Assembly: GCA_902801845.1 (NCBI GenBank)
Contig: CADCJW010000002.1
Location: 305,627 to 369,626 of the forward strand
Reading direction: 5' to 3'
Length of the DNA stretch: 64,000 nucleotides
Source of the DNA: an uncultured Eubacteriales bacterium
Lineage (GTDB): Bacteria; Bacillota; Clostridia; Christensenellales; CAG-138
Position 1 is the first letter of the stretch. Every line of letters begins with the position of its first letter. Shown here in pieces: positions 6,181-63,026 of this stretch. The notes below the pieces were generated by a model. It had not been told where the DNA came from, did no database searches, and worked only from the letters and a program-made list of their open reading frames with translations. A program made the translations under genes and the position numbers.

Positions 6181-6233
6181 GTTCCTTTTTCTCTTCGGTG
6201 AAGAGAACAAGGAACCGAAAAAAAGAAGCACAC
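6181..6233 (-). repeat. Intergenic hairpin repeat, copy 1 (reverse orientation)
   Basis: GTTCCTTTTTCTCTTC-ggt-GAAGAGAACAAGGAAC followed by CGAAAAAAAGAAGCACAC. It is the reverse complement of the consensus seen at 10283, 17653 and 27388. Confidence 0.85.
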
Positions 6234-6240
6234 ATATAGG

Positions 6241-6279
6241 GGAGAAATGGTTCGTTTTCAGGACCATTTCTCCTTTTTT
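6241..6279 (+). terminator. Intrinsic terminator after pepD copy 1
   Basis: GGAGAAATGGT...ACCATTTCTCC stem followed by TTTTTT. Confidence 0.7.
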
Positions 6280-6288
6280 GATTCGATA

Positions 6289-6317
6289 TTGACATATAAG
6301 ATATGCAGTATTATACT
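6289..6317 (+). promoter_or_regulatory. Sigma-A-like promoter for the DUF819 gene
   Basis: TTGACA, 17-nt spacer, TATACT. It would give a 5' UTR of about 100 nt. Confidence 0.55.
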
Positions 6318-6424
6318 TTAAAAAGTCGAAGGTTTCACACTGGTGACACATTTCGACGATACGATCCACGATCACATGGCCCCCTGTCGGGGGCTTTGGG
6401 ATAGAAAAAAAGGAGGGGTAATTT

Positions 6425-7540
6425 ATGATTACCAATGGTTTCACCTATTTTGCCACATTGGTCCTGATCGCTGGCGTCCTGGTCGGCGCCCAGAAGCTGA
6501 CCAAGTGGAAGTTCTTCGAGTATGTGCCCCCGGTGGTGCTGCTCTACCTCATCGGCATGCTGGGCTGCACCTTCAAGCTGTGGGACACCGCGGCCACCAA
6601 GGAAGCTTACAGCGCCCTGCGTAACCCGATCCTGTATGCCATGATCTTCGTCATGTTGCTCCGCTGCGACATCCGTCAGATCCTGAAGCTGGGACCCAAG
6701 ATGCTGCTGGGCTTCTTCACCGCCACCATCACCATCGCCATCGGCTTCGTGGCCACCTACGCCATCATGCATCCCTTGCTGGGCGAAGGCGCCTGGCGCG
6801 GCCTTGGCGCCCTGTGCGGCAGCTGGATGGGCGGCTCCGGCAACCTGGTCGCCGTGGCGGACGCTCTGCAGGCCACGGAGGCGCAGCTGGCCGGCGCGTC
6901 CATCGTGGACTCTATCGACTACTCCATCTGGGTCATGTTCCTGCTGTGGGCCATCACCCTGGCGCCCAAGTTCAACAAGTGGGTCAAGGCCAACACCAAG
7001 ACCCTGGACGAAGTTTCCTCCCGTCTCGACGCCGAGTTCGCTCAGGCGCAGACCAAGAAGGTGGACTTCCCGTCCCTCATCTTCCTGCTGGGCCTCGCCC
7101 TGTTCGTGTCCGCCGTGTGCACCAACCTGGGCACCGCGCTCCGCGACGCTTCCCCCTCTTGGCTGAAGGTCTTTGACGTGGCCACCTACCGGATCGTGCT
7201 GGTGTCCATCATCGGTCTGGTCCTGGCCATGACCCCCGTGGGCAAGATCGCCGGCTCCACGGAGCTGTCCAACATCATGCTGTACATGGTCATCGGCCTC
7301 ATCGCCTCCCGCGCCTCCTTCCTGGAGCTCTTCGAGGCGGGCATGGCCTGGTGGATCGTGGCGGGCTTCGTGATCCTGCTCATCCACGGCGTGCTGATGA
7401 TCCTCTTTGCCAAGCTCTTCAAGCTGGATATGTTCACCGGTCTCCGTGGGCGTGCTGATGGCCCTCATGGGCTATGTGGTGGGCACCTTCGGCGGCATTG
7501 GTGTAGGTTATCTTATGTCGATTTTCGGTTAATGGCATAA
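6425..7540 (+). CDS. DUF819-family polytopic membrane protein. The 3' end appears frameshifted (see findings).
   Basis: Hydrophobic multi-TM translation, RBS AAGGAGG. After about aa 337 the listed frame turns Arg/Gly/His-rich, while the +1 frame encodes a TM-like tail ending at 7532. Confidence 0.65.
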   Translation: MITNGFTYFATLVLIAGVLVGAQKLTKWKFFEYVPPVVLLYLIGMLGCTFKLWDTAATKEAYSALRNPILYAMIFVMLLRCDIRQILKLGPKMLLGFFTATITIAIGFVATYAIMHPLLGEGAWRGLGALCGSWMGGSGNLVAVADALQATEAQLAGASIVDSIDYSIWVMFLLWAITLAPKFNKWVKANTKTLDEVSSRLDAEFAQAQTKKVDFPSLIFLLGLALFVSAVCTNLGTALRDASPSWLKVFDVATYRIVLVSIIGLVLAMTPVGKIAGSTELSNIMLYMVIGLIASRASFLELFEAGMAWWIVAGFVILLIHGVLMILFAKLFKLDMFTGLRGRADGPHGLCGGHLRRHWCRLSYVDFRLMA

Positions 7541-7558
7541 TTAAATGAACGACGGACG

Positions 7559-7586
7559 CGATGCAAGTGACGTTTCACTTGCATCG
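7559..7586 (+). other. 12-bp perfect hairpin between the DUF819 gene and pepD copy 2
   Basis: CGATGCAAGTGA-cgtt-TCACTTGCATCG. There is no clean U-run, so it may be a weak terminator or a processing/stability element. Confidence 0.4.
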
Positions 7587-7619
7587 TGTTATACTTAAGA
7601 AAAAAGGAGAAAAAAAGCT

Positions 7620-9059
7620 ATGGGCGTTTTATCCGGTTTGCAGCCGCAGGTAGTCTTTCATTTCTTTGAGGAGCTGTGCGCCATCCCCCACGGGTCCCAC
7701 AACACCAAGGCGATCAGCGACTATCTGGTGGCCTTCGCCGAAAAGCGGCACTTGAAGTTCCGTCAGGACGAGCTCAACAACGTCGTCATCTGGAAGGCCC
7801 CCACGGCGGGCTATGAGCATGCCCCCGCGGTCATGATCCAGGGCCACATGGACATGGTGGCCGAAAAGGACGCGGACTGCCCCAAGGACATGGAGAAGGA
7901 GGGGTTGGACCTCTTCGTAGACGGGGACACTGTGGGCGCCCGGGGCACCACCCTGGGCGGCGACGACGGCATCGCCGTAGCCATGGCCCTGGCCGTTTTG
8001 GATGGGGACGATATCCCCCACGGGCCCCTGGAATGTTTGTTCACCGTGGACGAGGAGGTGGGCATGCTGGGCGCCCGGGGCCTCGACACTTCGGATCTTG
8101 CGGCCAAGTATATGCTGAACGTGGACTCCGAGGAGGAGAAGGTCCTCACCGTCAGCTGCGCCGGGTCCACCCGGGCGGTCTGCACGCTGCCCATCGAGCG
8201 GGCCGCCTTTACGGGCACGGTCTGCGCTCTCACCGTGGACGGGCTCATGGGCGGCCACTCCGGCGAGGAGATCCACAAATGCCGGGCCAATTCGAACATC
8301 CTCATGGGCCGGGCCCTGATCGAGCTCATGAACGTCACGGGCCTTCGGATCATCGCCCTTTCCGGCGGCGCCAAGGACAACGCCATCCCCCGGGACGCCA
8401 AGGCGCTGATCGCTGTGGAGGACTTCGCGGCGGCCAAGGCGGCGGCAGAGGCCCTGGACGCGGCGGTGAAGAACGAGTATCGGACCGCCGATCCCGACGT
8501 GCGGATCGGGCTGGCCCCCGCGGAGACGGACCTGGTCCCCCTGGACGAAAACAGCACCCGCCGGGTGGCCACCTTCCTCTTCTGCGCCCCCAACGGGGTC
8601 CAGATGATGAGCGCCGAAGTGGCGGGTCTGGTGCAAACCTCCCTGAACCTGGGCCAGGTGAGCACCGAGGACAGCACCGTCACCGCCCGGTTCATGATCC
8701 GCTCCAGCGTCAATTCCCAGGCTGCCGAGACCACGGAGAAGGTCATCGCCCTGACGAAGCTGTTGGGCGGCACGGTGGACATCCCCGCCGCCTACTCCGC
8801 CTGGCAGTATCGGCCCGAATCCCACCTCAGGGACGTGATGGTGGAGGCCTTCCGGGCGGTCTACGGCGAGGAGCCCAAGATCGCCGCCCTCCACGCAGGC
8901 CTGGAGTGCGGGATCCTCTCCGGAAAGATGCCGGAACTGGACTGCATCTCCTTCGGGCCGGATCTGATGAACATCCATACGCCCCGGGAGCGGCTCCACA
9001 TCGCCTCCACGGAGCGGACCTGGGCCCTCATGCTGGAGACCCTCAAGCGCCTGAAATAA
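7620..9059 (+). CDS. pepD: Aminoacyl-histidine dipeptidase PepD, copy 2 (paralog of 4734..6170)
   Basis: 479 aa, colinear with copy 1, with roughly two-thirds identical residues by eye. RBS AAGGAG. Confidence 0.85.
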   Translation: MGVLSGLQPQVVFHFFEELCAIPHGSHNTKAISDYLVAFAEKRHLKFRQDELNNVVIWKAPTAGYEHAPAVMIQGHMDMVAEKDADCPKDMEKEGLDLFVDGDTVGARGTTLGGDDGIAVAMALAVLDGDDIPHGPLECLFTVDEEVGMLGARGLDTSDLAAKYMLNVDSEEEKVLTVSCAGSTRAVCTLPIERAAFTGTVCALTVDGLMGGHSGEEIHKCRANSNILMGRALIELMNVTGLRIIALSGGAKDNAIPRDAKALIAVEDFAAAKAAAEALDAAVKNEYRTADPDVRIGLAPAETDLVPLDENSTRRVATFLFCAPNGVQMMSAEVAGLVQTSLNLGQVSTEDSTVTARFMIRSSVNSQAAETTEKVIALTKLLGGTVDIPAAYSAWQYRPESHLRDVMVEAFRAVYGEEPKIAALHAGLECGILSGKMPELDCISFGPDLMNIHTPRERLHIASTERTWALMLETLKRLK

Positions 9060-9069
9060 GGAGGAATCC

Positions 9070-10230
9070 ATGGGCAAAGACAAAACTTCCATCGTGTTCA
9101 CCGGCGACATCGGCTTCGATCGGTACATGGACCGCCGCTGGGAGGACGACCGGCTCCTTTCCCAGCCCATTTTGGACTTCTTCCACGGGGCGGACCACGT
9201 GGCCGCCAACGTGGAGGGGGCCCTCATCGACGCCGTGGACGACGGCAGCCGGGGCGTGTTCTTCCACGCCATGAACCCCGCCGCCACCAAGGTCCTGAAG
9301 AACATGCACGCGGACATCTGGTGCATCGGCAACAACCACACCATGGACGCGGGCCGGGACGGCGTCATCAGCACCAAAAGGATCGCCCGGGACATGGGCT
9401 GCCTCACCATCGGCGCGGGCCTCAACGTAAAGGAGGCCTCGGAGCCCATCTACCTGGAGGAGGCGGGCGGCATCGGCATGTTCGGCGTAGCGTATATGGC
9501 CGAGTGCATCCCCGCCACAGAGACGGAGCCCGGCATCTTCCGCTGGGACGACATGGACGGCATCAAGCGCCGCATCGACGAAATCAAGGCGAAGTGCCGC
9601 TGGTGCGTCGTCGTCAGCCACGGCGGCGAAGAGTTCACCAGCATGCCCAGCCCCTACACCCGGGACCGGTATCTGCGGTATCTGGAGCTGGGGGCCGACG
9701 TGGTGGTGGCCCACCATCCCCACGTGCCCGAGAACTATGAGCTCTTCCCCGACGGAAAGGCCATCTTCTACTCCCTGGGGAACTTCATCTTCGACACCAA
9801 CTACCAGCGGGCCCACCTGTACACCGACGTGGGCGTGCTCTTGAAGCTCATCTTCACCCCCGAGAAGCTGGACTTCGAGGCCATGGGCATCCGGATCGTC
9901 CGGGGCCCGGAGAACATCGTGGCGGCGCCCCTGCCCGACATCTTCACCAACATTCCCGCCGGGGAGTATGCCCTTCTATCGCCCCTGGCCGCCAAGGCCT
10001 TCGTGGCGGAAGACGCGCGCAAGATGATCTACCTGGAGCCGGAACGGTTCACCGACGCGCCCCAGGAGGTCTGGGACGGGTACTTCTTCAGCACCGAGCC
10101 CGACGGTTACTTTGAGGGGGCCCACATGGACTTCAACGTGATCGTCCCCTTCTCCAAGACCGCCGAAGAGGGGGCCTGGAAGTATTCCAAGCTGGACAAG
10201 GTGAAGGCATATATCCTTAAGCAACTATAA
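9070..10230 (+). CDS. CapA/PGA_cap-family metallophosphatase-like protein
   Basis: Motifs TGDIGFDR, CIGNNHTMD, SHGGEEF and VVAHHPHV are typical of the CapA family. RBS AAGGAGG. Confidence 0.7.
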   Translation: MGKDKTSIVFTGDIGFDRYMDRRWEDDRLLSQPILDFFHGADHVAANVEGALIDAVDDGSRGVFFHAMNPAATKVLKNMHADIWCIGNNHTMDAGRDGVISTKRIARDMGCLTIGAGLNVKEASEPIYLEEAGGIGMFGVAYMAECIPATETEPGIFRWDDMDGIKRRIDEIKAKCRWCVVVSHGGEEFTSMPSPYTRDRYLRYLELGADVVVAHHPHVPENYELFPDGKAIFYSLGNFIFDTNYQRAHLYTDVGVLLKLIFTPEKLDFEAMGIRIVRGPENIVAAPLPDIFTNIPAGEYALLSPLAAKAFVAEDARKMIYLEPERFTDAPQEVWDGYFFSTEPDGYFEGAHMDFNVIVPFSKTAEEGAWKYSKLDKVKAYILKQL

Positions 10231-10245: not shown

Positions 10246-10271
10246 GGCGTTCCTTTCGGAACGCTTTTTTC
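10246..10271 (+). terminator. Intrinsic terminator after the capA-like gene
   Basis: GCGTTCC-tttc-GGAACGC followed by TTTTTT. Confidence 0.7.
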
Positions 10272-10282
10272 TTATCCATCCT

Positions 10283-10334
10283 GTGCTTCTCTTTTTCGGT
10301 TCCTTTTTCTCTTCACCGAAGAGAAAAAGGAACA
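10283..10334 (+). repeat. Intergenic hairpin repeat, copy 2 (forward)
   Basis: GTGCTTCTCTTTTTCG flank, then GTTCCTTTTTCTCTTC-acc-GAAGAGAAAAAGGAAC (16-bp perfect stem). Confidence 0.9.
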
Positions 10335-10337: not shown

Positions 10338-11090
10338 TCAATCCAGCAAATACTCCATAAACACCGGTATCCGCGCCTCCCAGTACGCCTCGCTGTGCTG
10401 GGCGTCGGGGATCACCCGGGCGTCCACCTGGGCCCCAAAGCGGGTGAGCCGCTGGGCCGTGGCAAAGAGGCCGGTGAGGATAGAGGTGTGCTTCCCCGCC
10501 TCCCCGGTGCCCATGTCCATATAGATGCGGGTGGGCGCGGAAAGGGGGTTCGCCTTCAGCAGCTCCGTCTCGTGGCCCCGAGCCGCCCACAGGCTGGGGG
10601 ACAGGGCCGCTGCCCGGGAGAAGGTGCTATTATAAGCCACCGCGGCGTACAGGGCCATGAGCCCGCCCATGGAGCTGCCTGCGATCAGGGTGTGCTCCCG
10701 ATCCGGCAGCGTCCGATATTCCCCATCGATCCGGGGCTTCAATTCCTTTACGATCCAGTCCATGGTCAGCTGCCCCCGGGCCGGGAACATGAGCTTCCCC
10801 CGCCAGGAGATGTCCCAGGGGGTGTACTCGCTCATCCGGTTGTCCCCCTCCGGGTTGCACTCCACCGCCACCAGGATCAGGGGCCGCCGGCTCCTCTCCA
10901 GATATTGCTTCATGCCCCAGCTTCTGCCGTAGGTGGCGTGGCTGTCGTAGAACACGTTGTGCCCGTCGAACATATAGAGCACCGGGTACCGCTCGTCGCC
11001 TATCTCGTATCCCTTGGGGGTGTAGATGTACAGCCGCCGGGGCTTTTTCGTGGGCAGGGTGGGAATCTGTATCCGTTCGACGCGAATCAT
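10338..11090 (-). CDS. Alpha/beta-hydrolase 'putative esterase' family protein
   Basis: 250 aa, nucleophile elbow GSSMGG, and an N-terminal YPVLYMFDGHN pattern typical of esterase-D/enterochelin-esterase-like proteins. Confidence 0.7.
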   Translation of the reverse strand: MIRVERIQIPTLPTKKPRRLYIYTPKGYEIGDERYPVLYMFDGHNVFYDSHATYGRSWGMKQYLERSRRPLILVAVECNPEGDNRMSEYTPWDISWRGKLMFPARGQLTMDWIVKELKPRIDGEYRTLPDREHTLIAGSSMGGLMALYAAVAYNSTFSRAAALSPSLWAARGHETELLKANPLSAPTRIYMDMGTGEAGKHTSILTGLFATAQRLTRFGAQVDARVIPDAQHSEAYWEARIPVFMEYLLD

Positions 11091-15804: not shown

Positions 15805-16518
15805 TTACTGGACCGGTTGAAGGGAGTCGTAAACGACCTTCAGCCCGTCGGCGTACGCCGTTTGATCCCCCACCCAGATGAGCAGGACCAGCTTCTCCCC
15901 CCGAAGGAAGATATGGCCCACAAAATCGTAGGTCTCCCCGTTCACCGTAACGTCGGAAGCACCCCGGTAGCAGGGGGTACCGTTGAGCTTGGTCTTTTGG
16001 ATGGACACGGGCGACAGGGTGAACCCGGTGACGCCGTTGCTGGTCAAAGCCCCCTCCACCATGGAGGTGATGGCCTCGTCGGAGGAAAAGAACAGGGCGA
16101 GGTCCACCATGGTCTCCGTCAGATTCATGTCGTTGGGCACCTCCTGATAGGAGAGGCAGGTGTGGTCGGTGTCGTCGAGGTCCGGGTAGAAAAAGACCCC
16201 GTCCTCCACCTTGGCCTGGAGCCATTCCCCCGGCGCCTGGAAGCGGAAGTAGGTCCCCTCGTAGGTCTGGAGCGGCGCTTGTGTCGCCTCGGGCGTGGCG
16301 GCAGGCGGCTCAGGCGAGGGCGAAAGCGTGACCCCGCAGGTGACGGAGGGCGATGCCGTGGGCTCCGGCTCAGGGGATGCGTCCGGGACCGGGGGCGTTT
16401 CTTGCGCAGCCTCCTGAACGGTGGCAGGGGCGTCGCCCCGCTCTGAGCGCGGGTTGGGCAGCGATACGCAGCCCGTCAGCAGCAACAGGCAAAGACAAAG
16501 GATCATCAGCTTTTTCAT
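15805..16518 (-). CDS. Lipoprotein of unknown function
   Basis: Start at ATG 16518 (RBS GGGGAGGAG). Lipobox MKKLMILCLCLLLLTGC, followed by a Pro/Glu/Ala/Thr linker. Confidence 0.7.
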   Translation of the reverse strand: MKKLMILCLCLLLLTGCVSLPNPRSERGDAPATVQEAAQETPPVPDASPEPEPTASPSVTCGVTLSPSPEPPAATPEATQAPLQTYEGTYFRFQAPGEWLQAKVEDGVFFYPDLDDTDHTCLSYQEVPNDMNLTETMVDLALFFSSDEAITSMVEGALTSNGVTGFTLSPVSIQKTKLNGTPCYRGASDVTVNGETYDFVGHIFLRGEKLVLLIWVGDQTAYADGLKVVYDSLQPVQ

Positions 16519-16528
16519 AGGGATCGTT

Positions 16529-16894
16529 TCACTCCTCCCCGGCATCCTTGGGCCCGCTGTCGCCGAAGACGGCCGCAAAATCCGCCTTGGCGTGGTCGTT
16601 GACCAGGGCGCAGAACCGGTCGTATTTTTCGAGAAAGGCCCGTCCCTCCGCCGTCAGGGAGGCGCCGCCGCCCTCCTTGCCGCCGGTGGTGGTGACGAGC
16701 AGGGGGAAGCCCAGCTCCCGCTCCGCCCGGCGGATGATGGCCCAGGCCTTACTGTAGGCCATGCCCATGGACAAGGTGGCCTGGCGGATGGAATGGTAGG
16801 TCTCCACCCGGTGGAGGAGGGCCGCGATGCCCGGGCCGAAAAACTTTTCCTCCCCCATGATCCGGGGAGAGACGATGAAGCGGATTTGGTTCAT
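16529..16894 (-). CDS. ModE-N-terminal-like winged-helix DNA-binding protein
   Basis: 121 aa starting at ATG 16894 (RBS AAAGGAGG). The SIRQAT..MGMAYSKAW......E...G.PL pattern resembles the ModE/LysR-like HTH. The rest of track ORF 16529..17632 is an artefact. Confidence 0.65.
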   Translation of the reverse strand: MNQIRFIVSPRIMGEEKFFGPGIAALLHRVETYHSIRQATLSMGMAYSKAWAIIRRAERELGFPLLVTTTGGKEGGGASLTAEGRAFLEKYDRFCALVNDHAKADFAAVFGDSGPKDAGEE

Positions 16895-17006
16895 AGGGCC
16901 TGCCTCCTTTTTGTGTATCATACCGCAAAAGGTCGAAACAGGCAAGAGCCGCCCCGATTGACAGGGGAAAAAGCCCATGATACACTGCAAAAAAGGAGGC
17001 GTGGAT

Positions 17007-17387
17007 ATGGGCTTCTGGATCTTTATGACGTGCATGACGGCGCTGCTCCCCCTGACCATGGCGGGGTTCGGGTCCCGGTTCGGGAAGAAGCCGCCCCGAC
17101 GCAACGGCGTCTTCGGGTACAAGACCACCCGATCCATGAAGAACGACGACACCTGGGATTTTGCCCATCGGTACGTTGGCCGGCTGTGGCGGTATTGGGG
17201 GCTGGTGACGCTGTTTGCCGCGCTCCTGGTCATGCTCCTGGTGCTGAATCGGGACGTGGAAACCGTAGGCTGTGCGGGAACGGTGCTGGTGTTCGCCCAG
17301 TTGGTCCCCCTCTTCGCCAGTATCTTCGCCACGGAGCGGGCGCTGAAGCGGACCTTCGATCGGTTCGGGCAGCGGATCGAGGGCTGA
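17007..17387 (+). CDS. SdpI/YhfL-family membrane protein
   Basis: Start at ATG 17007 (RBS AGGAGG). The N..FGY.T..S.....W..A pattern and 3-4 TM helices fit this family. Confidence 0.55.
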   Translation: MGFWIFMTCMTALLPLTMAGFGSRFGKKPPRRNGVFGYKTTRSMKNDDTWDFAHRYVGRLWRYWGLVTLFAALLVMLLVLNRDVETVGCAGTVLVFAQLVPLFASIFATERALKRTFDRFGQRIEG

Positions 17388-17410
17388 AGGGCCCTTTTTT
17401 CGTACGGGGG

Positions 17411-17439
17411 TTGACAGACGGGCGGACATGGGATAATAT
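17411..17439 (+). promoter_or_regulatory. Promoter of the trp leader / trpB2 operon
   Basis: TTGACA, 17-nt spacer, TAATAT. Confidence 0.55.
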
Positions 17440-17471
17440 AGTATATAATTTCTGAGGAAAGGAGCACGGTC

Positions 17472-17555
17472 ATGGGCAGGAACGTCGCAGGGTCCTTCTG
17501 GTTTAGCGGCTGGTGGTTTAGCCGCCGTTTTGCGCTGCCCTGGAATGGATCGTGA
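17472..17555 (+). CDS. Candidate Trp-codon-rich leader peptide (27 aa): MGRNVAGSFWFSGWWFSRRFALPWNGS
   Basis: RBS AGGAAAGGAG lies 8 nt upstream. There are four UGG codons, including a tandem pair at 17511-17516. An intrinsic terminator lies 21 nt downstream, and the next gene is a tryptophan-synthase beta homolog. Confidence 0.6.
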   Translation: MGRNVAGSFWFSGWWFSRRFALPWNGS

Positions 17556-17575
17556 GCCGCTCGGCATGGAAGCAC

Positions 17576-17606
17576 GGGCCTCGTCCAACAGGGCGAGGCC
17601 TTTTTA
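17576..17606 (+). terminator. Intrinsic terminator (putative attenuator) upstream of trpB2
   Basis: GGGCCTCG-tccaacagg-CGAGGCC followed by TTTTT, inside the 5' leader and 124 nt before the trpB2 start. Confidence 0.7.
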
Positions 17607-17652
17607 TGTGGATGGATTGGAAGCTTTCGCACTCTCCCCCATTTTACCCCTT

Positions 17653-17708
17653 ACGCTTCTCTTTTTTCGGTTCCTTTTTTCTCTTCACCGAAGAGAAAAA
17701 AGGAACAC
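17653..17708 (+). repeat. Intergenic hairpin repeat, copy 3 (forward), located in the trpB2 5' leader
   Basis: ACGCTTCTCTTTTTTCG flank, then GTTCCTTTTTTCTCTTC-acc-GAAGAGAAAAAAGGAAC (17-bp stem). Confidence 0.9.
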
Positions 17709-27387: not shown

Positions 27388-27441
27388 GTGCTTCTCTTTT
27401 TTGGCACTTTTTTCTCTTCACCGAAGAGAAAAAAGTGCACA
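27388..27441 (+). repeat. Intergenic hairpin repeat, copy 4 (forward)
   Basis: GTGCTTCTCTTTTTTG flank, then GCACTTTTTTCTCTTC-acc-GAAGAGAAAAAAGTGC. The outer stem base pairs differ from copies 2 and 3 but remain complementary. Confidence 0.9.
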
Positions 27442-27451: not shown

Positions 27452-28435
27452 TCATTCCATTACCCCATTCGGCCTGGACAAATCCAAAATGACCCGGGTG
27501 CCCTTGCCGACTTCGGACTCAGCGGTGATCCCGTGCCCCAAGAGGTCGCAGGTACGCTTGCAGAGGTACAACCCCAGGCCCGTGGCCCGCTCCAACCTCC
27601 GGCCGTTTTCGCCGGTAAAGCTCTTTTCAAAGATCCGCGGCAGCTCGCTTTCCGGGATGCCCATGCCCGTGTCCTCGATGACGAGCCGGTCCCCCTGGGC
27701 AAAGATGGATACGCCGCCCTGGTTGGTATACTTGAGGGCGTTGCCGAGGAGCTGGCCGATGACGAACCCCAGCCACTTCTCGTCCGTGAGCACGGTGCGC
27801 CCCGTGGGCGTGAAGGTCAGCGTCAGCTTCTTCAGGATGAACAGCCGGGCGTACTCCTTCACGGCGGCGCGGATGACGGCGTCGAGATCGCATGCTTTCA
27901 GCACCAGGTCCGTGCTCTCGCCGCCCAGCCGCTGGTAGGTGAGGACCAGGTCCACATACTTCTCCATGGCGAACAGCTCCCCCTTGAGGAGGGCCGGATC
28001 AGGCTCCCCGCTCTGCAGGAGCAGCCCCATGGCCGCCAGGGGCGTCTTGATCTGATGGACCCAGGCGGTATAGAAGGTCTCCGCCCTATCCCGCTCCGCC
28101 GCAGCCTCGGCCACAGTCCGCCGCCGGTCCTCCTCCAGGGCATTTAGCAGGGCCTGATAGTCCGCCTCCAAAGCGTCCTCCGCCTCCGGCAGGACCAAGG
28201 ATCCCTCGCCCATCAGCTCAAGGACCCGCTGCAGGGCCTTGTGCCGGCTCCGATACCGGCAAAAGCCCAGGACCAGGAATAGGGCCCCCACCGCCAGGCA
28301 CAACAAAAAAGCGTACCACAGCCCCTCCCGGGGGACGCGGTACAGGAACAGGACAGCCGCGGCCACGCCCCCGCATACAAGGAGCATCAGCAGCAGCCGG
28401 ATATGACGCTTCAGATAGGAAAGGAACAGCTTCAT
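27452..28435 (-). CDS. Intramembrane-sensing histidine kinase (BceS-like)
   Basis: Start at ATG 28435, overlapping the response regulator (RR) stop (ATGA). Two N-terminal TM helices with a minimal loop, H-box HQIKTPL, and an HATPase region (GNALKY, DTGMGI, GLGLYL). Confidence 0.8.
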   Translation of the reverse strand: MKLFLSYLKRHIRLLLMLLVCGGVAAAVLFLYRVPREGLWYAFLLCLAVGALFLVLGFCRYRSRHKALQRVLELMGEGSLVLPEAEDALEADYQALLNALEEDRRRTVAEAAAERDRAETFYTAWVHQIKTPLAAMGLLLQSGEPDPALLKGELFAMEKYVDLVLTYQRLGGESTDLVLKACDLDAVIRAAVKEYARLFILKKLTLTFTPTGRTVLTDEKWLGFVIGQLLGNALKYTNQGGVSIFAQGDRLVIEDTGMGIPESELPRIFEKSFTGENGRRLERATGLGLYLCKRTCDLLGHGITAESEVGKGTRVILDLSRPNGVME

Positions 28436-36285: not shown

Positions 36286-36323
36286 TGGTTCTCTTCTTTG
36301 GTTCCTTTTAGAAAAAAGAACAC
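36286..36323 (+). repeat. Intergenic hairpin repeat, copy 5 (degenerate; hairpin tip deleted)
   Basis: GTGGTTCTCTTCTTTGGTTCCTTTTaGAAAAAAGAACAC aligns with the consensus flank and outer stem, but the central TCTCTTC-acc-GAAGAG is missing. Confidence 0.6.
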
Positions 36324-36332: not shown

Positions 36333-37526
36333 CTATATCAGCGAAAGCAGCACGAACAGCCAGTGGGCCGCGATGCCGGCGCAGAAGCCGCCCACGGTGT
36401 GACAGAGGATGGATTTACCCACCAGCTCGTTGCAATGGAGCATGTCCATCATGGACACGTGGGTGGAAAGATACCCACTCCAGCACATGCACATGCCGGT
36501 GAACACGGCCACGTCGTTGGCGCCGGCGGCCCCTTCGCGAAGGAGCTCCGGCACCATGCCCAATGACGCGCCGGCGGACCCAAGGGCCGTGATGGGCACG
36601 GACACGCAGGCGGAGGAGGCGAACCCGAAGAGAGGCTTGAAGAGGAACTGGAGCTTATCCCCCAGCATGGGCAGGATGCGGATGCCCTCGTAGGCCGCGC
36701 CGGTGTAGGTGCCGTCGGCGGCGGGGCCGTAGGTCAGCATCATGACCACGGTGCAGATGACCAGCACCCCGGGGATGATCCCCAAACCCAGCTCCACGCC
36801 ATTCTTGCCGCCCTCCATGAGGGCATTGAGGAGCCGCAGCATGAACCCCTTCTTAGGCTTGTTCTCCTCGTCGGTCATCTGCCCCATCTCCCGGGGGGAC
36901 AGGGCCAGGGTCTCCGTGCCGTAAAATTTCTTGGAAAAGTGGAGGAGCATCCGGGTGCTGATGACGCTGCCCGCCACCGCGCCCAAATTCCCGCACAGGA
37001 CCGCCTTGCCCAGGCTCATCCCCGTCACGGCGGACAGGCCCGCCATATAGCTGGTGACGATGAGGCCCATACCGAAGGCCGTGCCCAGGTTGGTCAGGGC
37101 CGGGATCTGATACGCCTTGAAGTATCGCCGGTACTGCTGCTCCTTGGCCAGGGCCAGGATGGATGGGTTGTCGGAAAAATAGGTGGACACTATGCCCAGG
37201 GCCGCCGCCCCGGGCATGCCGTACAGGGGCTTCATAAGGGGCGAGAGCAGGAAGTTGAAAAGCTCCAGCACGCCGAACTCCGTCAGCATCTCGGACAGGG
37301 CCCCCGCCAGCACGGCGATGGCCATGATGTAGAACACCGTATCCAGCAAAATACGGTAGGCGGTGTTCATCATGGTGTTGATGGCGTTGGTCATGCCCAT
37401 GGGCACCATGAACAGGGCCATGAACCCCAAAAATACCGCTAAGAACAGGGTGCTTTTCAGCAAATTCTTCCCCGTCACCATCCGCTGCTGCCGCAGGGCC
37501 TCTCGTTTTTCGTCAAAAGATGGCAT
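36333..37526 (-). CDS. Nucleoside-recognition (Gate) domain membrane protein, YjiH/YjiG-like
   Basis: 397-aa polytopic protein. Last gene of the glutaminase operon. RBS GGGAGAG. Confidence 0.55.
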   Translation of the reverse strand: MPSFDEKREALRQQRMVTGKNLLKSTLFLAVFLGFMALFMVPMGMTNAINTMMNTAYRILLDTVFYIMAIAVLAGALSEMLTEFGVLELFNFLLSPLMKPLYGMPGAAALGIVSTYFSDNPSILALAKEQQYRRYFKAYQIPALTNLGTAFGMGLIVTSYMAGLSAVTGMSLGKAVLCGNLGAVAGSVISTRMLLHFSKKFYGTETLALSPREMGQMTDEENKPKKGFMLRLLNALMEGGKNGVELGLGIIPGVLVICTVVMMLTYGPAADGTYTGAAYEGIRILPMLGDKLQFLFKPLFGFASSACVSVPITALGSAGASLGMVPELLREGAAGANDVAVFTGMCMCWSGYLSTHVSMMDMLHCNELVGKSILCHTVGGFCAGIAAHWLFVLLSLI

Positions 37527-59210: not shown

Positions 59211-59220
59211 CCCCCCAAAC

Positions 59221-59257
59221 GGCAAAACAAAAGGGACAGTCCGAAGACTGTCCCTCT
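59221..59257 (-). terminator. Terminator after the PH-domain gene
   Basis: AGGGACAGTC-ttcg-GACTGTCCCT followed by TTTTGTTTT on the minus strand. Confidence 0.7.
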
Positions 59258-59270
59258 TGAATGGTTTGGT

Positions 59271-59660: not shown

Positions 59661-59663
59661 GCC

Positions 59664-60977
59664 TTATTTCAGCACGGAATCGGCCTTGAGGAAGCCCAAC
59701 TGCTTGGCGATGCAGCAGGTGCAGGTCAAGTCGCCGGTGACGTTCAGGGCGGTACGGCCCATGTCGAGGATGGCGTCGATGCCCAGGATCATGGCATAGG
59801 CACCGGCCAGGACAGAACCGGCCTCGATGGGCAGGTTGATGCCCTGCATGACCATGGCCAGCATGATGGCGCCGGCGCCGGGCACACCCGCGGTGCCGAT
59901 GGAGGCCAACGTGGCGAGCAGGACGATCATGCCCATCTCACCCATGGTCAGGCCACGGCCGAAGCAGGACATGACCAGGAAGAAGGCGCAGACGCCCTGG
60001 TAGATGGCCGTGCCGTCCATGTTGATGGTGGCGCCCAGAGGCAGGGAGAAGGCGTACACTTCCTTGTCCACGCCCAGATTCTCCGCCGCGGCGAAGGTGG
60101 TGGGCAGGGTGCCGTTGGAAGAACGGGTGACGAAGGCGGTGATGAAGGGCGTCCGGGCCTCCTTGAAGAAGGTGCCCAGCTTGATCTTGAAGATGGCCAG
60201 CAGGCCGCCGTAGACCAGCACGATGTGGATGGCGTAGCCCAGGAAGCAGGCCAGGGTCACCGTGGCCAGCGCGCCGGCCACCTTGGCGCCGTTCTTGGCG
60301 AAGACCTCGCAGATCAGCACGGCCACGCCGATGGGAGCATACTGCATGATGCCGGAGACGATCTTCATCATGATCTCGGCCAGGCAGTCGAAGATGTTGT
60401 ACATGGTGGTGGAGATGGTGCGGATGCGCTCATTCTCGGACACCTTCATGAAGGACAGGCAGAGGCCGAAGATCAGGGAGAAGAAGATGACCTGAAGCAC
60501 GGTCTCGTTCACCAGGGACTGAAGCACGCTGGTGGGGATAATCTCCGCGATGACGTTCCACACGCTCACGTCCGCGGTCTTACCGGCGGCCTCGGCGGCC
60601 AGCTCGGTGACCTGGGCCAGCTCAGCATGGGGCTGGAAGACGTTGCCCATGACGAGGCCGATGATGACGCCGAAGGCGGAGGTGATCAGGTAGATGATGA
60701 CCACGCGGATACCGACCTTGCCCACGTTAGCGGGAGAGACGGAGGACGCGCCCACCACCAGGGAACCGACGATCATGGGGATGATGATCATCTTCAGCAA
60801 CCGGGTGAAGATGGTGCCGAACATGCTGATCCACTTGGGCAGGGCCGTGACGCCGGAAGCCGCCAGGATGATGCCCGCGACCGCGCCGATGACGAGGCCG
60901 ATAAGGATCTTGTAGAGTACGTTGAAGTTCAGGTATGCTCTGAGGATACCGCCCTTCTTGGGTTCGTTGTTTGCCAT
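59664..60977 (-). CDS. Dicarboxylate/amino acid:cation symporter (DAACS; GltP/SstT-like)
   Basis: Start at ATG 60977 (RBS AGGAGG). About 437 aa with the conserved ...SSNGTLP... and ...NMDGTA.Y... motifs. Confidence 0.8.
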   Translation of the reverse strand: MANNEPKKGGILRAYLNFNVLYKILIGLVIGAVAGIILAASGVTALPKWISMFGTIFTRLLKMIIIPMIVGSLVVGASSVSPANVGKVGIRVVIIYLITSAFGVIIGLVMGNVFQPHAELAQVTELAAEAAGKTADVSVWNVIAEIIPTSVLQSLVNETVLQVIFFSLIFGLCLSFMKVSENERIRTISTTMYNIFDCLAEIMMKIVSGIMQYAPIGVAVLICEVFAKNGAKVAGALATVTLACFLGYAIHIVLVYGGLLAIFKIKLGTFFKEARTPFITAFVTRSSNGTLPTTFAAAENLGVDKEVYAFSLPLGATINMDGTAIYQGVCAFFLVMSCFGRGLTMGEMGMIVLLATLASIGTAGVPGAGAIMLAMVMQGINLPIEAGSVLAGAYAMILGIDAILDMGRTALNVTGDLTCTCCIAKQLGFLKADSVLK

Positions 60978-61170
60978 AAATACCCCTCCTGAATGTTTTT
61001 TCCCCACGCCCGGCAAAACCGGGCAAATCGGGATGGTAATAGTATATCATGGGGCGGCAGGATATGGAAGAGAAAACGAAAAAAGTTCAAACATTTTGGC
61101 ATTTTGGTGAACTCGGCCCGGAATGCTGCTCATAAAAAGGGAAGGGCGTGAACCCTCCCTTTATATTCCT

Positions 61171-61220
61171 GAGCTTTTCTTTTCGGCTCCTTTTCTTTTC
61201 ACTGAAAAGAAAAGGAACAA
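61171..61220 (+). repeat. Intergenic hairpin repeat, copy 6 (forward, variant)
   Basis: GAGCTTTTCTTTTCGG flank, then TCCTTTTCTTTTCA-c-TGAAAAGAAAAGGA. The internal C-to-T and G-to-A changes relative to the consensus are compensatory. Confidence 0.8.
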
Positions 61221-61230
61221 AGGTATCCCC

Positions 61231-62154
61231 TTACTGCAGGAACCCGTTGATGATCTGCTCCTCGGCCTCGGCTTCCGTGAGGCCCAGGGTCATGAGCTTG
61301 GTGAGCTGCTCCCCGGCGATCTTGCCGATGGCGGCCTCGTGGACCAGCGCCGCGTCCAGGTCGTTGGCTTCCAGCCCCGGCACCGCCAAAATGCGGCCCC
61401 GGTCCATGATGATGGAGTCGCACTCCGTATGGCCGGAACAGGGGGCGTTGCCCACGATCTTGGCGTCGAACTTCTGATAGGAATCATCCCGGGCCACGGA
61501 CCGGGAGACCACGTCCGCCGTGGCGCCGGCGCCGTTGAGGGAGACCACATAGGTGCTGACGGCCCGCTGCTCGCCGTGGGTCATCAGCCGCTCCCGGACC
61601 AGGAGCTTTGCCCCGGCTTTGAGCTCTGCGGTGGTGGTGCGGACGGTGTCGTCCACGCCCTTGATCTGCACCATCTCCATCTCGACGGTGCTGCCCTCCT
61701 CCTGGTAGACCTCGGTGCCCGGGTTCAGAATGCGCTTGCCCTTGCCCTCGCCGGAGCCGTAATGCTTTTCCACGTACTTCACATGGGCGTTTTTGCCCAC
61801 GTAGAACCGGTGGATGCCGTCGTGCTCCGCATCCTGGTTGCCGCAGTTGTCGATGCCGCAGCCCGCCACGATGAGCACGTCCGCCCCCTCGCCCACGAAA
61901 AAGTCGTTATAGACCACCTCTTTGAGGCCGGTCTGGGTGAGGACCACGGGGATGTGCACGCTCTCGTTCTTCGTGAAGGGGGCGATGCGGATGTCCATGC
62001 CGCTCACGTCGGTCTTGGACGTGATCTCGATGTTGGCCGTGGACCGGCGGCCCGCCATCTGGCTGTTGGAGCGGATGTTGTAGGCGCCCTCGGGCACGGC
62101 GTGCAGGTCCGCGATCTCCCGCAGGAGCCGCTTTTGGATCTCATCCAGCTTCAT
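61231..62154 (-). CDS. SufB/SufD-family Fe-S assembly protein (short, 307 aa)
   Basis: Start at ATG 62154, overlapping the sufC stop (ATGA). Beta-helix-like repeats and a C-terminal ...EAAIGKI..EQL..LM..GL.E.EA pattern typical of SufBD. Confidence 0.7.
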   Translation of the reverse strand: MKLDEIQKRLLREIADLHAVPEGAYNIRSNSQMAGRRSTANIEITSKTDVSGMDIRIAPFTKNESVHIPVVLTQTGLKEVVYNDFFVGEGADVLIVAGCGIDNCGNQDAEHDGIHRFYVGKNAHVKYVEKHYGSGEGKGKRILNPGTEVYQEEGSTVEMEMVQIKGVDDTVRTTTAELKAGAKLLVRERLMTHGEQRAVSTYVVSLNGAGATADVVSRSVARDDSYQKFDAKIVGNAPCSGHTECDSIIMDRGRILAVPGLEANDLDAALVHEAAIGKIAGEQLTKLMTLGLTEAEAEEQIINGFLQ

Positions 62155-62900
62155 GCGTCCACGCCTCCCTTCGGGCTGATCATGTGGCATTCGGACACGG
62201 CGGAGGAGGTGCCCATGAGCTGGGGCAGGATCTCGCTTCGGGTGCCCTGCTTCTCCACCCGGCCGTCCTTGATCATGACGATCTCGTCGGCGATGTTCAA
62301 AATGCGCTCCTGGTGGGAGATGATGAGGATGGAGCTGTTTTGCACGGTTTTGCGCATGCGCTCGAAGACCTCGATCAGGTTCTGAAAGCTCCACAGGTCG
62401 ATCCCCGCCTCGGGCTCGTCGAACACGGATAACGCCGCGCCCCGGGCCAGGACCGTGGCGATCTCGATGCGCTTGAGTTCACCGCCGGACAAACTGGCGT
62501 TCACCTCCCGGTCGATGTAGTCCCGGGCGCACAGGCCCACGGCGGACAGGTATTCGCAGGCCCCCGCCGGGCTCAGCTGCTTCCCGGCGGCGATGCGGAT
62601 AAGGTCCATGACCTTGATGCCTTTGAACCGGACCGGCTGCTGAAAGGCGTAGGCGATGCCCAGGCGCGCCCGGTCGGTGATGCTCTTGTCGGTGATGTCC
62701 TCGCCCCTGAAGAGGATGCGGCCCTCGGTGGGCTTTTCGATGCCTGCGATGAGCCGGGCCAGGGTGCTCTTGCCGCCGCCGTTGGGGCCGGTGATGACCA
62801 CCAGCTTGTTCTCGGGGATGTTGAGGCTCACCCCGCGGATGATCTCCTTGTCCCCCTTGTCCTCCGCCACCTGGAAGGACACGTTTTCCAATTCCAGCAT
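62151..62900 (-). CDS. sufC: Fe-S cluster assembly ATPase SufC-like
   Basis: Start at ATG 62900. Walker A GPNGGGKST, signature LSGGELKR, Walker B SVFDEPE, and an H-loop ISHQERIL. Confidence 0.8.
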   Translation of the reverse strand: MLELENVSFQVAEDKGDKEIIRGVSLNIPENKLVVITGPNGGGKSTLARLIAGIEKPTEGRILFRGEDITDKSITDRARLGIAYAFQQPVRFKGIKVMDLIRIAAGKQLSPAGACEYLSAVGLCARDYIDREVNASLSGGELKRIEIATVLARGAALSVFDEPEAGIDLWSFQNLIEVFERMRKTVQNSSILIISHQERILNIADEIVMIKDGRVEKQGTRSEILPQLMGTSSAVSECHMISPKGGVDA

Positions 62901-62970
62901 ATCTCTCCCTCGCTGTTGCACATAGTAAGGGTATTATACCAGAGTTTTATTGGAAAGAAAGACTTTTTTT

Positions 62971-63026
62971 GCGTTTGCCGCTTTTTCTCTTTAGACAAAG
63001 AGAAAAAGCGGCGGAAAAAGAGGAAC
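62971..63026 (-). repeat. Intergenic hairpin repeat, copy 7 (reverse, variant)
   Basis: GCCGCTTTTTCTCTTT-agac-AAAGAGAAAAAGCGGC followed by GGAAAAAGAGGAAC. The stem ends and one internal pair differ from the consensus but stay complementary. Confidence 0.8.

Follow-up and report, generated by a model that had tools for sequence, protein, structure and literature searches.

In the 64-kb window (the whole stretch of DNA analysed), seven copies of an interspersed repeat were located at the positions given in the initial annotation, next to genes whose identities were confirmed by Pfam. The repeat is extragenic and strikingly AT-rich in a GC-rich genome, as that annotation had stated, the GC content of the window being 55-66%. 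An eighth element, missed at the time, belongs to a second family and forms a composite with copy 7, at one end, and a central hairpin. Using a 16-mer arm and at most three mismatches, 10 matches were obtained in the window vs. 0.30 expected from shuffles, while a sequence-agnostic scan for the three-tract architecture described below recovered six of the seven copies and found none in 200 Markov simulations of the window. The features are listed in Table 1.

Table 1. Repeat copies and associated hairpins in the 64-kb window.
Feature	Position	Strand	Description
Copy 1, hairpin	6181-6215	-	Pyrimidine arm with a single G interruption; 10 nt 3' of the stop of the M20 peptidase gene (4734-6170, +)
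Copy 1, third tract	6217-6228	-	CTTCTTTTTTTC on the minus strand; one mismatch vs. the purine arm
Terminator-like hairpin and T-run	6238-6276	+	Directly 3' of copy 1 on the mRNA strand
Terminator-like hairpin	10247-10264	-	3' of copy 2 on the esterase mRNA strand
Copy 2, third (Hoogsteen-type) tract	10286-10297	+	CTTCTCTTTTTC
Copy 2, hairpin	10299-10333	+	16 bp; ACC loop; RNA free energy of -22.8 kcal/mol; 4 nt between its end and the esterase gene stop (10338-11090, -)
Copy 3	17656-17706	+	Third tract 17656-17668, hairpin 17670-17706; run lengths 6/6/6; minority orientation, ending 23 nt 5' of the ATG of the PALP-enzyme gene (17730, +)
Copy 4	27390-27438	+	Third tract 27390-27404, hairpin 27404-27438; clamp GCAC/GTGC; 13 nt 3' of the histidine-kinase gene stop (27452-28435, -), upstream of an ABC ATPase gene (-)
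Copy 5 (whole copy)	36288-36321	+	Decayed, hairpin tip deleted; between the ThrRS terminator and the stop of gene 36333-37526 (-)
Terminator-like hairpin	61140-61159	-	3' of copy 6 on the mRNA strand
Copy 6	61174-61218	+	Third tract 61174-61184 (CTTTTCTTTTC), hairpin 61187-61218, GAAAAG type; 12 nt 3' of the SufBD-family gene stop (61231-62154, -)
Copy 7	62977-63025	-	Hairpin 62977-63012, AAAGAG type, GCCGC clamp
Copy 7, third tract	63013-63025	-	TTCCTCTTTTTCC, one mismatch
Central hairpin of the composite	63042-63068	.	GGGAGT...ACTCCC
Second-family element	63077-63112	+	Third tract 63077-63085 (GTTCTTTGG), hairpin CACCACCTTTCTT-tc-AAGAAAGGTGGT; inverted relative to copy 7

Both stem arms change together between copies, GTTCC/GGAAC becoming GCAC/GTGC or GCCGC/GCGGC and, at the tip, CTCTTC/GAAGAG becoming CTTTTC/GAAAAG or CTCTTT/AAAGAG; the sequence agrees with each of these previously described changes. 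The selection on the hairpin that had been read from them is supported, but the unit is more than a hairpin, its third tract covarying with the purine arm. What had been called a 5' extension, CTTCTCTTTTT, complements the purine arm GAAGAGAAAAA in parallel, Hoogsteen-type fashion, with T under A and C under G, and is a mirror of the 5' arm, a feature overlooked earlier. On one strand, the unit consists, from 5' to 3', of the third tract, a 2-nt linker, a 5-bp GC clamp, the pyrimidine arm, a loop of 3-4 nt, the purine arm and the other side of the clamp. The exact 2-nt linker and 5-bp clamp are found in 66 of 93 copies, and adjacent C residues in the third tract in none of the 93.

Judged from its sequence, the unit has the architecture of an intrastrand triplex, with a pyrimidine motif on one strand ("class IV", T.A-T and C+.G-C triples) and a purine motif on the other, where the hairpin is followed by a purine mirror tail ("class II", A.A-T and G.G-C triples). 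It is the class II strand that is usually the mRNA sense, as in copy 1, whose third tract is a purine tail on the plus (mRNA) strand. In copy 5, since the tip is deleted, the third tract no longer has a match in the arm. The third tract is unpaired in secondary-structure predictions (ViennaRNA does not model triplexes), and in some copies its T-run can alternatively pair with the A-rich 3' flank, giving stems of 22-27 bp.

A census of at least 13 ruminant-gut Clostridia genomes together with the window yielded 106 non-redundant copies, of which 92 have a perfect parallel complement of 10-13 nt at most 26 nt upstream. Among the same 106, such a third tract occurs on the opposite strand in none and a direct-repeat reading fits one, and permuting the purine cores among copies produced 45 matches on average and never more than 58, vs. 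the 92 observed. A set of 129 hairpins was also collected without reference to the flank, and the upstream pyrimidine run was then compared: in 118 of the 129, its 5' hexamer complements the tip of the purine arm in parallel (GAAGAG/CTTCTC in 91, AAAGAG/TTTCTC in 18 and GAAAAG/CTTTTC in 9). The copies being related and orthologues homogenised or swapped, part of the overall concordance is copying of concordant masters and not independent compensation. Run lengths are concordant at 4/4 in 6 copies, 5/5 in 42 and 6/6 in 59, and discordant in 11; tip variants and run lengths of 4, 5 and 6 shift jointly in all three tracts. Where the two arms have unequal run lengths, the third tract matches the purine arm in 25 cases and the Watson-Crick arm in 2. 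Each tip or run-length state is found on several clamp, linker and loop backgrounds, and because the clamp separates the tracts, a single crossover cannot explain the concordance. An additional tip type (GAAGAAAAA, in L111) is concordant too, and the same third-tract rule holds in 54 of 56 hairpins of the second family, which is unrelated in sequence. A wobble-asymmetry strand test gave 48 T.G vs. 42 C.A.

These data bear on whether the element might simply be an ordinary REP-like hairpin, its flank being the U- or A-tract of a bidirectional terminator or low-complexity sequence and the likeness of the tracts coming from a few masters, which we regard as unlikely. The third tract does sit between the central terminator-like hairpin and the element and reads T-rich or A-rich depending on the strand, the sequences are of low complexity (the core TTCTCTT is itself mirror-symmetric), and copies are homogenised or swapped as whole units. 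However, nothing in a U-tract role calls for parallel complementarity at every base, whereas TTTCTC occurs only with AAAGAG and CTTTTC only with GAAAAG, and runs match at each of the three lengths; nor does an ordinary hairpin predict that the third tract would track the purine arm when the arms differ, or that a second family of different sequence would follow the same rule. Moreover, the concordance spans at least 25 clamp, loop and tip combinations, and the tract is retained in solo copies without the central hairpin, e.g. copy 4 of the window and L096.

As for position, five of the seven window copies (1, 2, 4, 5 and 6) do lie directly 3' of a stop codon, as first reported, while copies 3 and 7 have the reverse arrangement, upstream of gene starts. 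Over a set of 118 copies, the stop codon faces the hairpin in 86, at a median distance of 13 nt (interquartile range 10-15), and these 86 have the purine tail in the mRNA sense; in 31 of the 118, both neighbouring genes are on the purine-tail strand. The element shares with intrinsic (Rho-independent) terminators a stable hairpin a few nt 3' of a stop codon, but its stem is AU-rich and is followed on the mRNA strand by an A/G-rich tract without a U-tract, so that the earlier view that it is not a canonical terminator holds, the mRNA strand 3' of the hairpin being A-rich and not U-rich. It is the neighbouring central hairpin that resembles a bidirectional terminator: the "terminators" 3' of copies 1, 2 and 6 correspond to this central hairpin, which recurs beside related copies, and the one at copy 2, flanked by an A-run and, on the opposite side, a T-run, looks bidirectional. 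An inverted partner around the central hairpin was found for 82 of 116 copies (71%), which supports the REP/BIME-like organisation suggested in the initial annotation.

No named family had been recognised, and Rfam indeed gave no match, but a precedent of the same kind exists in BoxC/PIT/TM-ECO (PMC4666352), known from E. coli and other Proteobacteria (Hoyne et al. 2000; Holder et al. 2015, PMC4666352), a class II intrastrand-triplex repeat that is interspersed and likewise found in inverted pairs (PMC4666352). This is the closest known relative of the Clostridia repeat. Both are interspersed, strictly intergenic and about 40-50 nt long, with three consecutive tracts (pyrimidine arm, purine arm and second purine tract), a possible class II intrastrand-triplex fold and the pyrimidine-motif class on the complementary strand; both have tens of copies or more per genome and inverted pairs of two subtypes, and the presence of both varies between close relatives. 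Their sequences are unrelated, BoxC being G/C-rich (CCCTCNCCC...GGGNGAGGG...GGGNGAGGG) and the Clostridia repeat A/T-rich, and they differ in their hosts, Proteobacteria vs. ruminant-gut Clostridia. Unlike BoxC, which has no preferred distance to ORFs, the Clostridia repeat has a median distance of 13 nt after the stop and a fixed orientation. It also differs in that a 5-bp GC clamp separates its linker from the triplex part, and in that it usually lies within a composite with a terminator-like hairpin. BoxC copies are nearly identical and the evidence for their fold is physical (CD, NMR), whereas that for the Clostridia repeat is three-way covariation.

On this basis, we somewhat favour the reading that the element is an interspersed REP/BIME-like intergenic repeat whose unit would be an intrastrand triple-helix motif, comparable to E. 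coli BoxC/PIT/TM-ECO but AT-rich. With REP/BIME/REPIN elements it shares extragenic palindromes in 3' UTRs and intercistronic regions, compensatory stem changes, clusters or pairs in alternating orientation, and orthologous sites that are filled or empty; REPs near a stop codon can reportedly affect translation and mRNA decay, as Liang, Rudd and Deutscher are said to have described in 2015. However, the conserved GTAG-type 5' tetranucleotide of REPs is absent, and REPs have no covarying third tract. With H-DNA mirror repeats, it shares the purine arm and purine tail forming a mirror on one strand and the same base-triple rules; H-DNA requires no more than a mirror repeat within duplex DNA, whereas here a covarying inverted repeat is also kept, which suggests that a single strand makes the fold by itself.

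Under the triplex reading, a single strand would fold into a hairpin with the third tract in its major groove, and selection would keep the three-stranded fold itself; if true, this would be rare comparative evidence of selection maintaining such folds in bacteria. The acting molecule would probably be DNA, since it is the purine motif that lies on the normally transcribed strand, and purine-motif intrastrand triplexes are reported not to form in RNA (PMC4666352). The fold would most plausibly form on transiently single-stranded DNA, candidate states being the non-template strand once RNA polymerase has passed, the template of lagging-strand synthesis, or an intermediate of mobilisation or gene conversion. 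Propagation or homogenisation might be limited to copies that retain the fold, and copies may also provide the 3' UTR with its first stable hairpin, before the terminator. Against a triplex, C+.G-C triples require protonation and purine-motif triplexes rich in A are weak; for a 2-nt linker, spanning a 5-bp clamp poses no difficulty in A-form RNA but entails strain in B-form DNA.

That linker resembles loop 1 across the deep groove of RNA pseudoknots, which counts for another, distinctly less probable reading, that of a host-selected 3'-end module acting via RNA or transcription. In one version, the pyrimidine-motif strand would be transcribed by read-through from a convergent or upstream gene, and a U.A-U/C+.G-C helix of 10-13 triples would cap the 3' end of the transcript against exonucleases, as in MALAT1/ENE. 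If transcribed, this strand would offer a U.A-U run with isolated C+.G-C triples that equals or exceeds that of MALAT1 in length. PAN/viral ENE, MALAT1 and MEN-beta differ, however, in that the Hoogsteen strand of the bacterial element is directly 5' of a simple hairpin, without a U-rich internal loop or a captured 3' A-rich tail, and in that the mRNA normally contains the other strand. In the second version, the purine-rich non-template strand would fold as a purine-motif triplex while the adjacent gene is transcribed, the purine-rich RNA staying on the template and RNA polymerase slowing just 5' of the terminator. Orientation follows the adjacent gene and not the chromosome strand, in composites between convergent genes each half faces the stop codon of its own gene, the stop-to-hairpin spacing is tight, the terminator-like hairpin comes after the element, and orthologous copies are about 100% identical vs. 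81-86% for coding flanks, all of which suits such a module. Convergent read-through past the central hairpin would also end in the pyrimidine-motif fold of the other element, and pyrimidine-motif intrastrand triplexes can form in RNA (PMC4666352). However, in the 31 copies with both neighbours on the purine-tail strand, no ordinary transcript would carry the pyrimidine motif, BoxC has no promoter or terminator activity, and, because many orthologous sites are without the element, it is dispensable.

Copies are indeed present or absent between close relatives: window copy 2 has no counterpart at the orthologous site of L017 and L109, L077 and L096 lack whole or half composites, and at the esterase site some relatives have no element and others hold four different subtypes. 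Among 28 orthologous pairs, the copies are 96-100% identical in 18, with coding flanks at about 86%, and the copy has been replaced whole by another subtype in 5. Target-site duplications were not seen at the sites compared between relatives, an absence typical of RAYT/IS200-type mobilisation; neither a transposase nor another mobilising enzyme was identified, and a search short of genome-wide found no associated RAYT gene. The high conservation at orthologous sites would also fit a protein-recognition site, in which a nucleoid protein or recombinase reading pyrimidine or purine tracts imposes the symmetry, and REP/BIME elements bind gyrase, IHF and RAYT transposases. This is nevertheless highly improbable: a mirror repeat in duplex DNA has no rotational symmetry, identical subunits would not read both tracts alike in single strands, where backbone polarity is opposite, and a tract sequence that is free to vary if the three tracts agree is the behaviour of pairing, not of sequence-specific contact. 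Finally, the three-tract architecture is clade-limited, with 10 matches in 102 kb of close relatives vs. 0 in 273 kb of more distant ones.

The seven repeat copies of the initial annotation were all found at their positions in the window, with the consensus and the stem changes as first quoted, and their AT-richness stands out against a window GC content of 55-66%. With up to three mismatches allowed, the 16-nt arm occurs ten times in the window vs. 0.30 expected from shuffled sequences. RNA folding predicts free energies of about -22 to -24 kcal/mol for the hairpins (z-scores between -5 and -6.5), except for copy 6 (-15.4 kcal/mol, z-score of -1.9), and leaves the pyrimidine-rich 5' extension upstream of each hairpin unpaired. 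The earlier opinion that these hairpins are not canonical terminators was borne out: a terminator scan called none of the seven, reporting neighbouring hairpins instead, and a GC-rich stem with an immediate U-tract on the transcribed strand, as in intrinsic terminators, is absent from all of them. The scan does report a hairpin of a second repeat family, followed by CCGTTTTTAT on the plus strand. The features discussed here, with a few isolated observations on their surroundings, are collected in the table below.

Positions of the repeat copies and associated features in the window and in loci from other genomes or metagenomes (L-numbers)
Feature	Position	Strand	Remarks
Copy 1	near 6181
Strong promoter-like sequence	6289-6317	+	TTGACA, 17 nt, TATACT (11/12 matches); after the terminator-like hairpin of copy 1, upstream of a DUF819 gene
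Copy 2	near 10283		A/T run lengths 5/5/5 across the three tracts
Esterase gene	10338-11090	-	stop codon adjoins copy 2
Region with a 367-aa ORF	15805-17632	-	Pfam HTH_1 (LysR-type) at residues 272-331 of the ORF
Second ORF, other frame	15805-16578		overlaps the 367-aa ORF; the pair suggests a LysR regulator gene with a frameshift or assembly error
Copy 3	near 17653		A/T run lengths 6/6/6
Copy 4	near 27388		A/T run lengths 6/6/6
Copy 5	near 36286		tip-deleted, decayed
Remnant-like sequence	61066-61090	+	GAAGAGAAAACGAAAAAAGTTC; resembles purine arm, linker and purine tail without the pyrimidine arm; upstream of a dicarboxylate-symporter gene
Copy 6	near 61171		tracts CTTTTCTTTTC / CTTTTCTTTTC / GAAAAGAAAAG
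Copy 7	near 62971		full composite
Central hairpin of copy 7	63042-63068
Second-family element of copy 7	63077-63112
Hairpin called by the terminator scan	63087-63112	+	second family
Second-family outer flank motif	63113-63130
Second-family outer flank motif	L100:2320-2340		also in L107 and L020
Hairpin with loop insertion	L118:2391-2580		esterase site
Unrelated repeat	L023:7726-7790		shares the 19-nt search word

Concerning the 5' extension, its presence had been noticed correctly, but its identity as a triplex-type third tract had been missed. The extension, CTTCTCTTTTT, mirrors the 5' arm (TTTTTCTCTTC); aligned with the purine arm (GAAGAGAAAAA) so that both run 5' to 3', it is complementary at each base. 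This agrees with the rule for a pyrimidine third strand in a triple helix, which runs parallel to the purine strand and places T under A, and C under G. Seen on the opposite strand, the tract is a purine tail whose bases are those of the purine arm in antiparallel order, as the purine motif requires. Its being a direct or inverted repeat of anything was ruled out; a direct repeat of the pyrimidine arm, in particular, fits one of 106 copies vs. 92 for the mirror reading. A symmetry imposed by a bound protein, geometrically implausible for a mirror repeat, is most improbable. Exactly two linker nucleotides and a 5-bp GC clamp separate the third tract from the pyrimidine arm in 66 of 93 copies, so that the spacer measures 7 nt with the clamp unpaired and 2 nt with the clamp paired (the ITxF search setting allows loops of 1-6 nt); the hairpin loop has 3-5 nt, and none of 93 third tracts contains adjacent C residues. 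The triplet rules (T.A-T and C.G-C parallel, or A.A-T and G.G-C antiparallel), for which eight positions would suffice, hold over 10-13 nt with at most one mismatch in 100 of 106 non-redundant copies. A comparison of wobble pairs, meant to show which strand is folded, favoured neither, with 48 T.G vs. 42 C.A cases, many of which come from run-length offsets. Intrastrand triplexes ordered Hoogsteen-pyrimidine-purine are referred to as class IV, and those ordered pyrimidine-purine-reverse-Hoogsteen as class II (PMC4666352); this three-tract order (class IV on one strand, class II on the other) is present in all intact window copies and in 118 of 129 family hairpins. A sequence-agnostic scan for the architecture (9 nt, at most one mismatch per tract) recovered six of the seven copies, vs. 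no hit at all in 200 windows simulated by a second-order Markov model.

Among window copies 2, 3, 4 and 6, the three tracts vary together, as they do on a larger scale among the 129 first-family hairpins obtained from all loci. In 118 of these, the 5' hexamer of the third tract complements the purine-arm tip in the parallel sense, a raw count inflated by homogenisation among copies that are related and not independent: CTTCTC accompanies GAAGAG in 91 copies, TTTCTC accompanies AAAGAG in 18 and CTTTTC accompanies GAAAAG in 9, while a further tip type, GAAGAAAAA, found in L111, is likewise concordant. The lengths of the A-run and T-run are 4/4 in 6 copies, 5/5 in 42 and 6/6 in 59, and discordant in 11. 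Once orthologous duplicates were removed (106 copies), the whole purine core of 10-13 nt had a perfect parallel complement at most 26 nt upstream in 92 copies, one with at most one mismatch in 100, and none on the opposite strand in any of the 106. Permutation of the purine cores among copies yielded 45 on average and 58 at most, vs. the 92 observed; with exact run length demanded, the observed value was 86, vs. 31 on average and 42 at most after permutation. When the run lengths of the two arms are unequal, the third tract follows the purine arm in 25 cases, many of these from one subfamily, and the pyrimidine arm in two. As for the second family (GTTCTTTTTGG-clamp-CCTTTTTCT-loop-AGAAAAAGG), the upstream TCT(n) equals the A-run length in 54 of 56 hairpins (3/3 in 10, 4/4 in 32 and 5/5 in 12).

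The stem covariation first noticed in seven copies persists with more of them, and the third tract joins it. As judged from these sequences, the covariation fits triple-helix rules and fits no Watson-Crick alternative. A plain hairpin repeat, flanked by a mere U- or A-tract, predicts neither the base-by-base concordance nor the second family, and is quite unlikely. Every tip and run-length state was found on several clamp, linker and loop backgrounds, and since the clamp separates the third tract from the hairpin arm, one crossover cannot move a tip type to another clamp without breaking the concordance. The occurrence of these states on many backgrounds argues for repeated coordinated change under selection.

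Genes were called by a self-trained codon model, and all neighbours of the window copies were checked with Pfam. In the orientation from third tract to hairpin, the right-hand gene lies on the opposite strand, with its stop codon facing the hairpin, in 86 of 118 cases (median distance of 13 nt, IQR 10-15), and in 25 of 118 it runs in the same direction and starts about 24 nt after the hairpin. The left convergent gene ends at a median of 107 nt (IQR 95-111), which leaves room for a central hairpin and an inverted partner. From this orientation and spacing, the usual mRNA would read stop codon, about 13 nt, hairpin, purine tail and terminator-like hairpin. The stop-adjacent placement reported for five of the seven window copies was confirmed for copies 1, 2, 4, 5 and 6, copies 3 and 7 having the minority orientation. 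Between convergent genes, each half of a composite (a first-family copy, a central terminator-like hairpin and an inverted partner) faces its own gene, for which reason replication-strand orientation was judged unlikely to lie behind the gene-orientation bias. The gene-tied orientation and the tight stop-hairpin spacing speak for the main rival to the reading that we favour, a host-selected function in RNA or transcription, which might act through a 3'-end-capping U.A-U helix on read-through transcripts or through a co-transcriptional pause before the terminator; 31 copies, on the other hand, have no sense transcript for the pyrimidine motif.

On the far side of the hairpin, the 3' flank of first-family copies in third-tract orientation (e.g. 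L011, L032 and L107) is A-rich and partly conserved (aAAAGaAAACTC) up to the reverse-complement stop codon, and corresponds on the mRNA strand to a U-rich spacer between stop codon and hairpin. Pairing of this flank with the third tract's T-run is possible in some copies, the stem then reaching 22-27 bp.

In 82 of 116 copies, a partner in inverted orientation is present at a distance of about 100 nt; it belongs to the second family in 57 cases and to the first in 25. The central hairpin between the partners has a purine-rich 5' arm and a variable sequence whose two arms vary together; with an A-rich tail on one side and a T-rich third tract on the other, it resembles a terminator for both directions. 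Window copies 1, 2 and 6 each have a terminator-like hairpin immediately after them on the mRNA strand, and copy 7 is accompanied by a second-family element which the initial annotation, otherwise right on the seven copies, had left out. A small ORF or a ribosome-binding site in the central region was considered and rejected, the purine-rich "RBS + ATG" strings being the 5' arm of the central hairpin, which covaries with the 3' arm. The outer flank of second-family elements, between hairpin and neighbouring stop codon, carries the conserved motif GCTTTCAATAAAttcc (reverse complement GGAAtTTATTGAAAGC). In one direction, TTGAAA stands 17 nt before the hairpin loop in a -35/-10-like arrangement, a weak promoter candidate; in the other, the T-rich version gives the hairpin the look of a terminator.

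The repeats come and go between close relatives. Copy 2 is missing at the orthologous sites of L017 and L109, where the esterase is one residue longer and has its own stop codon; a whole composite is missing in L077 relative to L107, and half a composite in L096 relative to L015. Among metagenomic orthologues, the site downstream of the esterase may be empty, may carry one copy alone or a composite (of three different subtypes in all), or may show an exact deletion of the hairpin or an insertion in a hairpin loop. The insertion (L118), of about 130 nt, replaces most of the purine arm, the purine tail and centre being intact. The deletion, seen in L114, L115 and L128 relative to L117, removes about 39 nt after the esterase stop, that is, the U-rich spacer and nearly the whole hairpin, and stops at the last 4 nt of the 3' clamp; what is left is the stop codon, TCGC, CC, the purine tail, the centre and the second-family element. 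Evidently, family palindromes can be lost cleanly. As regards the terminal inverted repeats and target-site duplications that characterise MITEs, composites are roughly palindromic, and a search for the duplications, proposed initially, revealed none at the three filled/empty comparisons, where flank divergence or replaced sequence blurs the borders. The likeness to REP/BIME elements holds in that the repeats are extragenic imperfect palindromes, often in alternating orientation. RAYT-mobilised elements of that type also have a conserved, GTAG-like tetranucleotide at the 5' end and a RAYT/Y1-transposase gene in the same genome.

Among 28 orthologous pairs, coding flanks average 86% identity and the 130 nt upstream of the third tract 79%, vs. 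96-100% for the element itself in 18 pairs; in five others, it had been swapped for another subtype, third tract and hairpin switching together. Near-perfect conservation at orthologous sites is a further point for a host-selected function in RNA or transcription, and the dispensability of many sites one against it; on balance, we regard that function as possible, though on the unlikely side.

Faced with the three-tract architecture, the triplex-rule covariation, the gene-tied position and orientation, the pairing and the turnover, we lean towards a reading in which a three-stranded fold of one strand is what is kept. This fold would form in transiently single-stranded DNA, be it the non-template strand during transcription, the lagging-strand template or an intermediate of mobilisation or gene conversion; concordant copies would be those that spread or become homogenised, and the hairpin would only incidentally be the first stable structure of the 3' UTR. 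Since the hairpin arms covary too, duplex H-DNA alone is insufficient to explain the pattern. Pyrimidine-motif intrastrand triplexes can reportedly form in RNA and purine-motif ones cannot (PMC4666352); as the usual mRNA strand carries the latter motif, a fold of transient single-stranded DNA is the most economical reading. That the triple helix serves as a functional component of gene ends in bacteria seems rather unlikely. It could be so in two ways: the pyrimidine-motif strand would be transcribed and its transcripts capped by a MALAT1-like helix of 10-13 triples, or the coding-strand DNA would fold co-transcriptionally into a purine-motif triplex, slowing RNA polymerase between stop codon and terminator. 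Either way, this would be the first bacterial 3'-end module with a long major-groove triple helix maintained by selection.

The Rfam search suggested at the outset gave no match in the window at the gathering threshold; at permissive E-values, one composite gave only sub-threshold, generic (miRNA-like) hairpin hits. The nearest known system is BoxC/TM-ECO of E. coli, an interspersed intergenic repeat described as a "potential intrastrand triplex" of class II order, whose oligonucleotides adopt a triplex fold by CD and NMR (PMC4666352). It is commonly found in inverted pairs made up of two subtypes, lies at no set distance from ORFs, lacks promoter and terminator activity, and has been associated with genomic variability (PMC4666352). 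The window repeat is alike in kind, with the class II order on what is usually the mRNA-sense strand and class IV on the other, but it belongs to a different phylum, does not match the BoxC/TM-ECO consensus (CCCTCNCCC N3-6 GGGNGAGGG N3 GGGNGAGGG; PMC4666352), its sequence being unrelated and A/T-rich, and differs by its GC clamp, its fixed position after stop codons and its terminator-containing composite. By sequence comparison, the two are separate families of the same kind of element. The initial finding is real and richer than first described, a variant of a known, poorly understood kind of element. The question of whether intrastrand triplexes arise and have a role in living bacteria goes back to the BoxC/PIT work, the copies of which are too alike to offer comparative evidence. 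The present family is a natural mutational series, with subtypes that differ in tip, run length and clamp while keeping both Watson-Crick and Hoogsteen-type complementarity.

A search of one genome per species, with the hairpin tip as the only query, gave at least 108 loci, about 85 of those listed being true family members. Among the matches listed, all true members come from rumen or ruminant-gut MAGs labelled as uncultured Clostridiales, Christensenellales or Oscillospiraceae; at least 13 genomes have the family, including RUG11019, RUG14803, RUG11425, RUG10656, RUG472, RUG13181, RGIG5880 and ruminal_MAG_432. L017, from the sheep jejunum genome RGIG5880, is 92-98% identical to the window, which places the window in the same species or in a near relative. 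When all listed loci were rescanned for polypyrimidine/polypurine hairpins with the flank ignored, the 129 first-family hairpins were obtained, many of them outside the original search pattern. Copy density would be about one per 8-16 kb (scattered 8-kb pieces totalling about 0.9 Mb). The architecture is limited to the clade, with 10 hits in 102 kb of close relatives vs. none in 273 kb of more distant ones. The composite had no match in phage and plasmid collections, and a scan of viral contigs gave a single hit, unrelated to the family. Motifs found upstream of the repeat are cTTAAGC, cCTGAGC and TGTGC. As a whole, the family recurs in many 3' intergenic regions of this uncultured clade of ruminant-gut Clostridia, either as a solo unit of 50 nt or as a composite of about 170 nt; unless recognised, such units might be taken for terminators or small RNAs.

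The 19-nt search word also occurs in an unrelated repeat, not a family member, in nine loci (L001, L023, L046, L057, L066, L078, L082, L087 and L103), the hosts being an uncultured Prevotella MAG and one MAG labelled as Bacillota. This repeat reads ...TTCTCTTCACCGAAGAGAAgaagcaagagaaagtagcgacgtcctcgccacgct, after tandem 'ttctcttcaccgaggggg' units.
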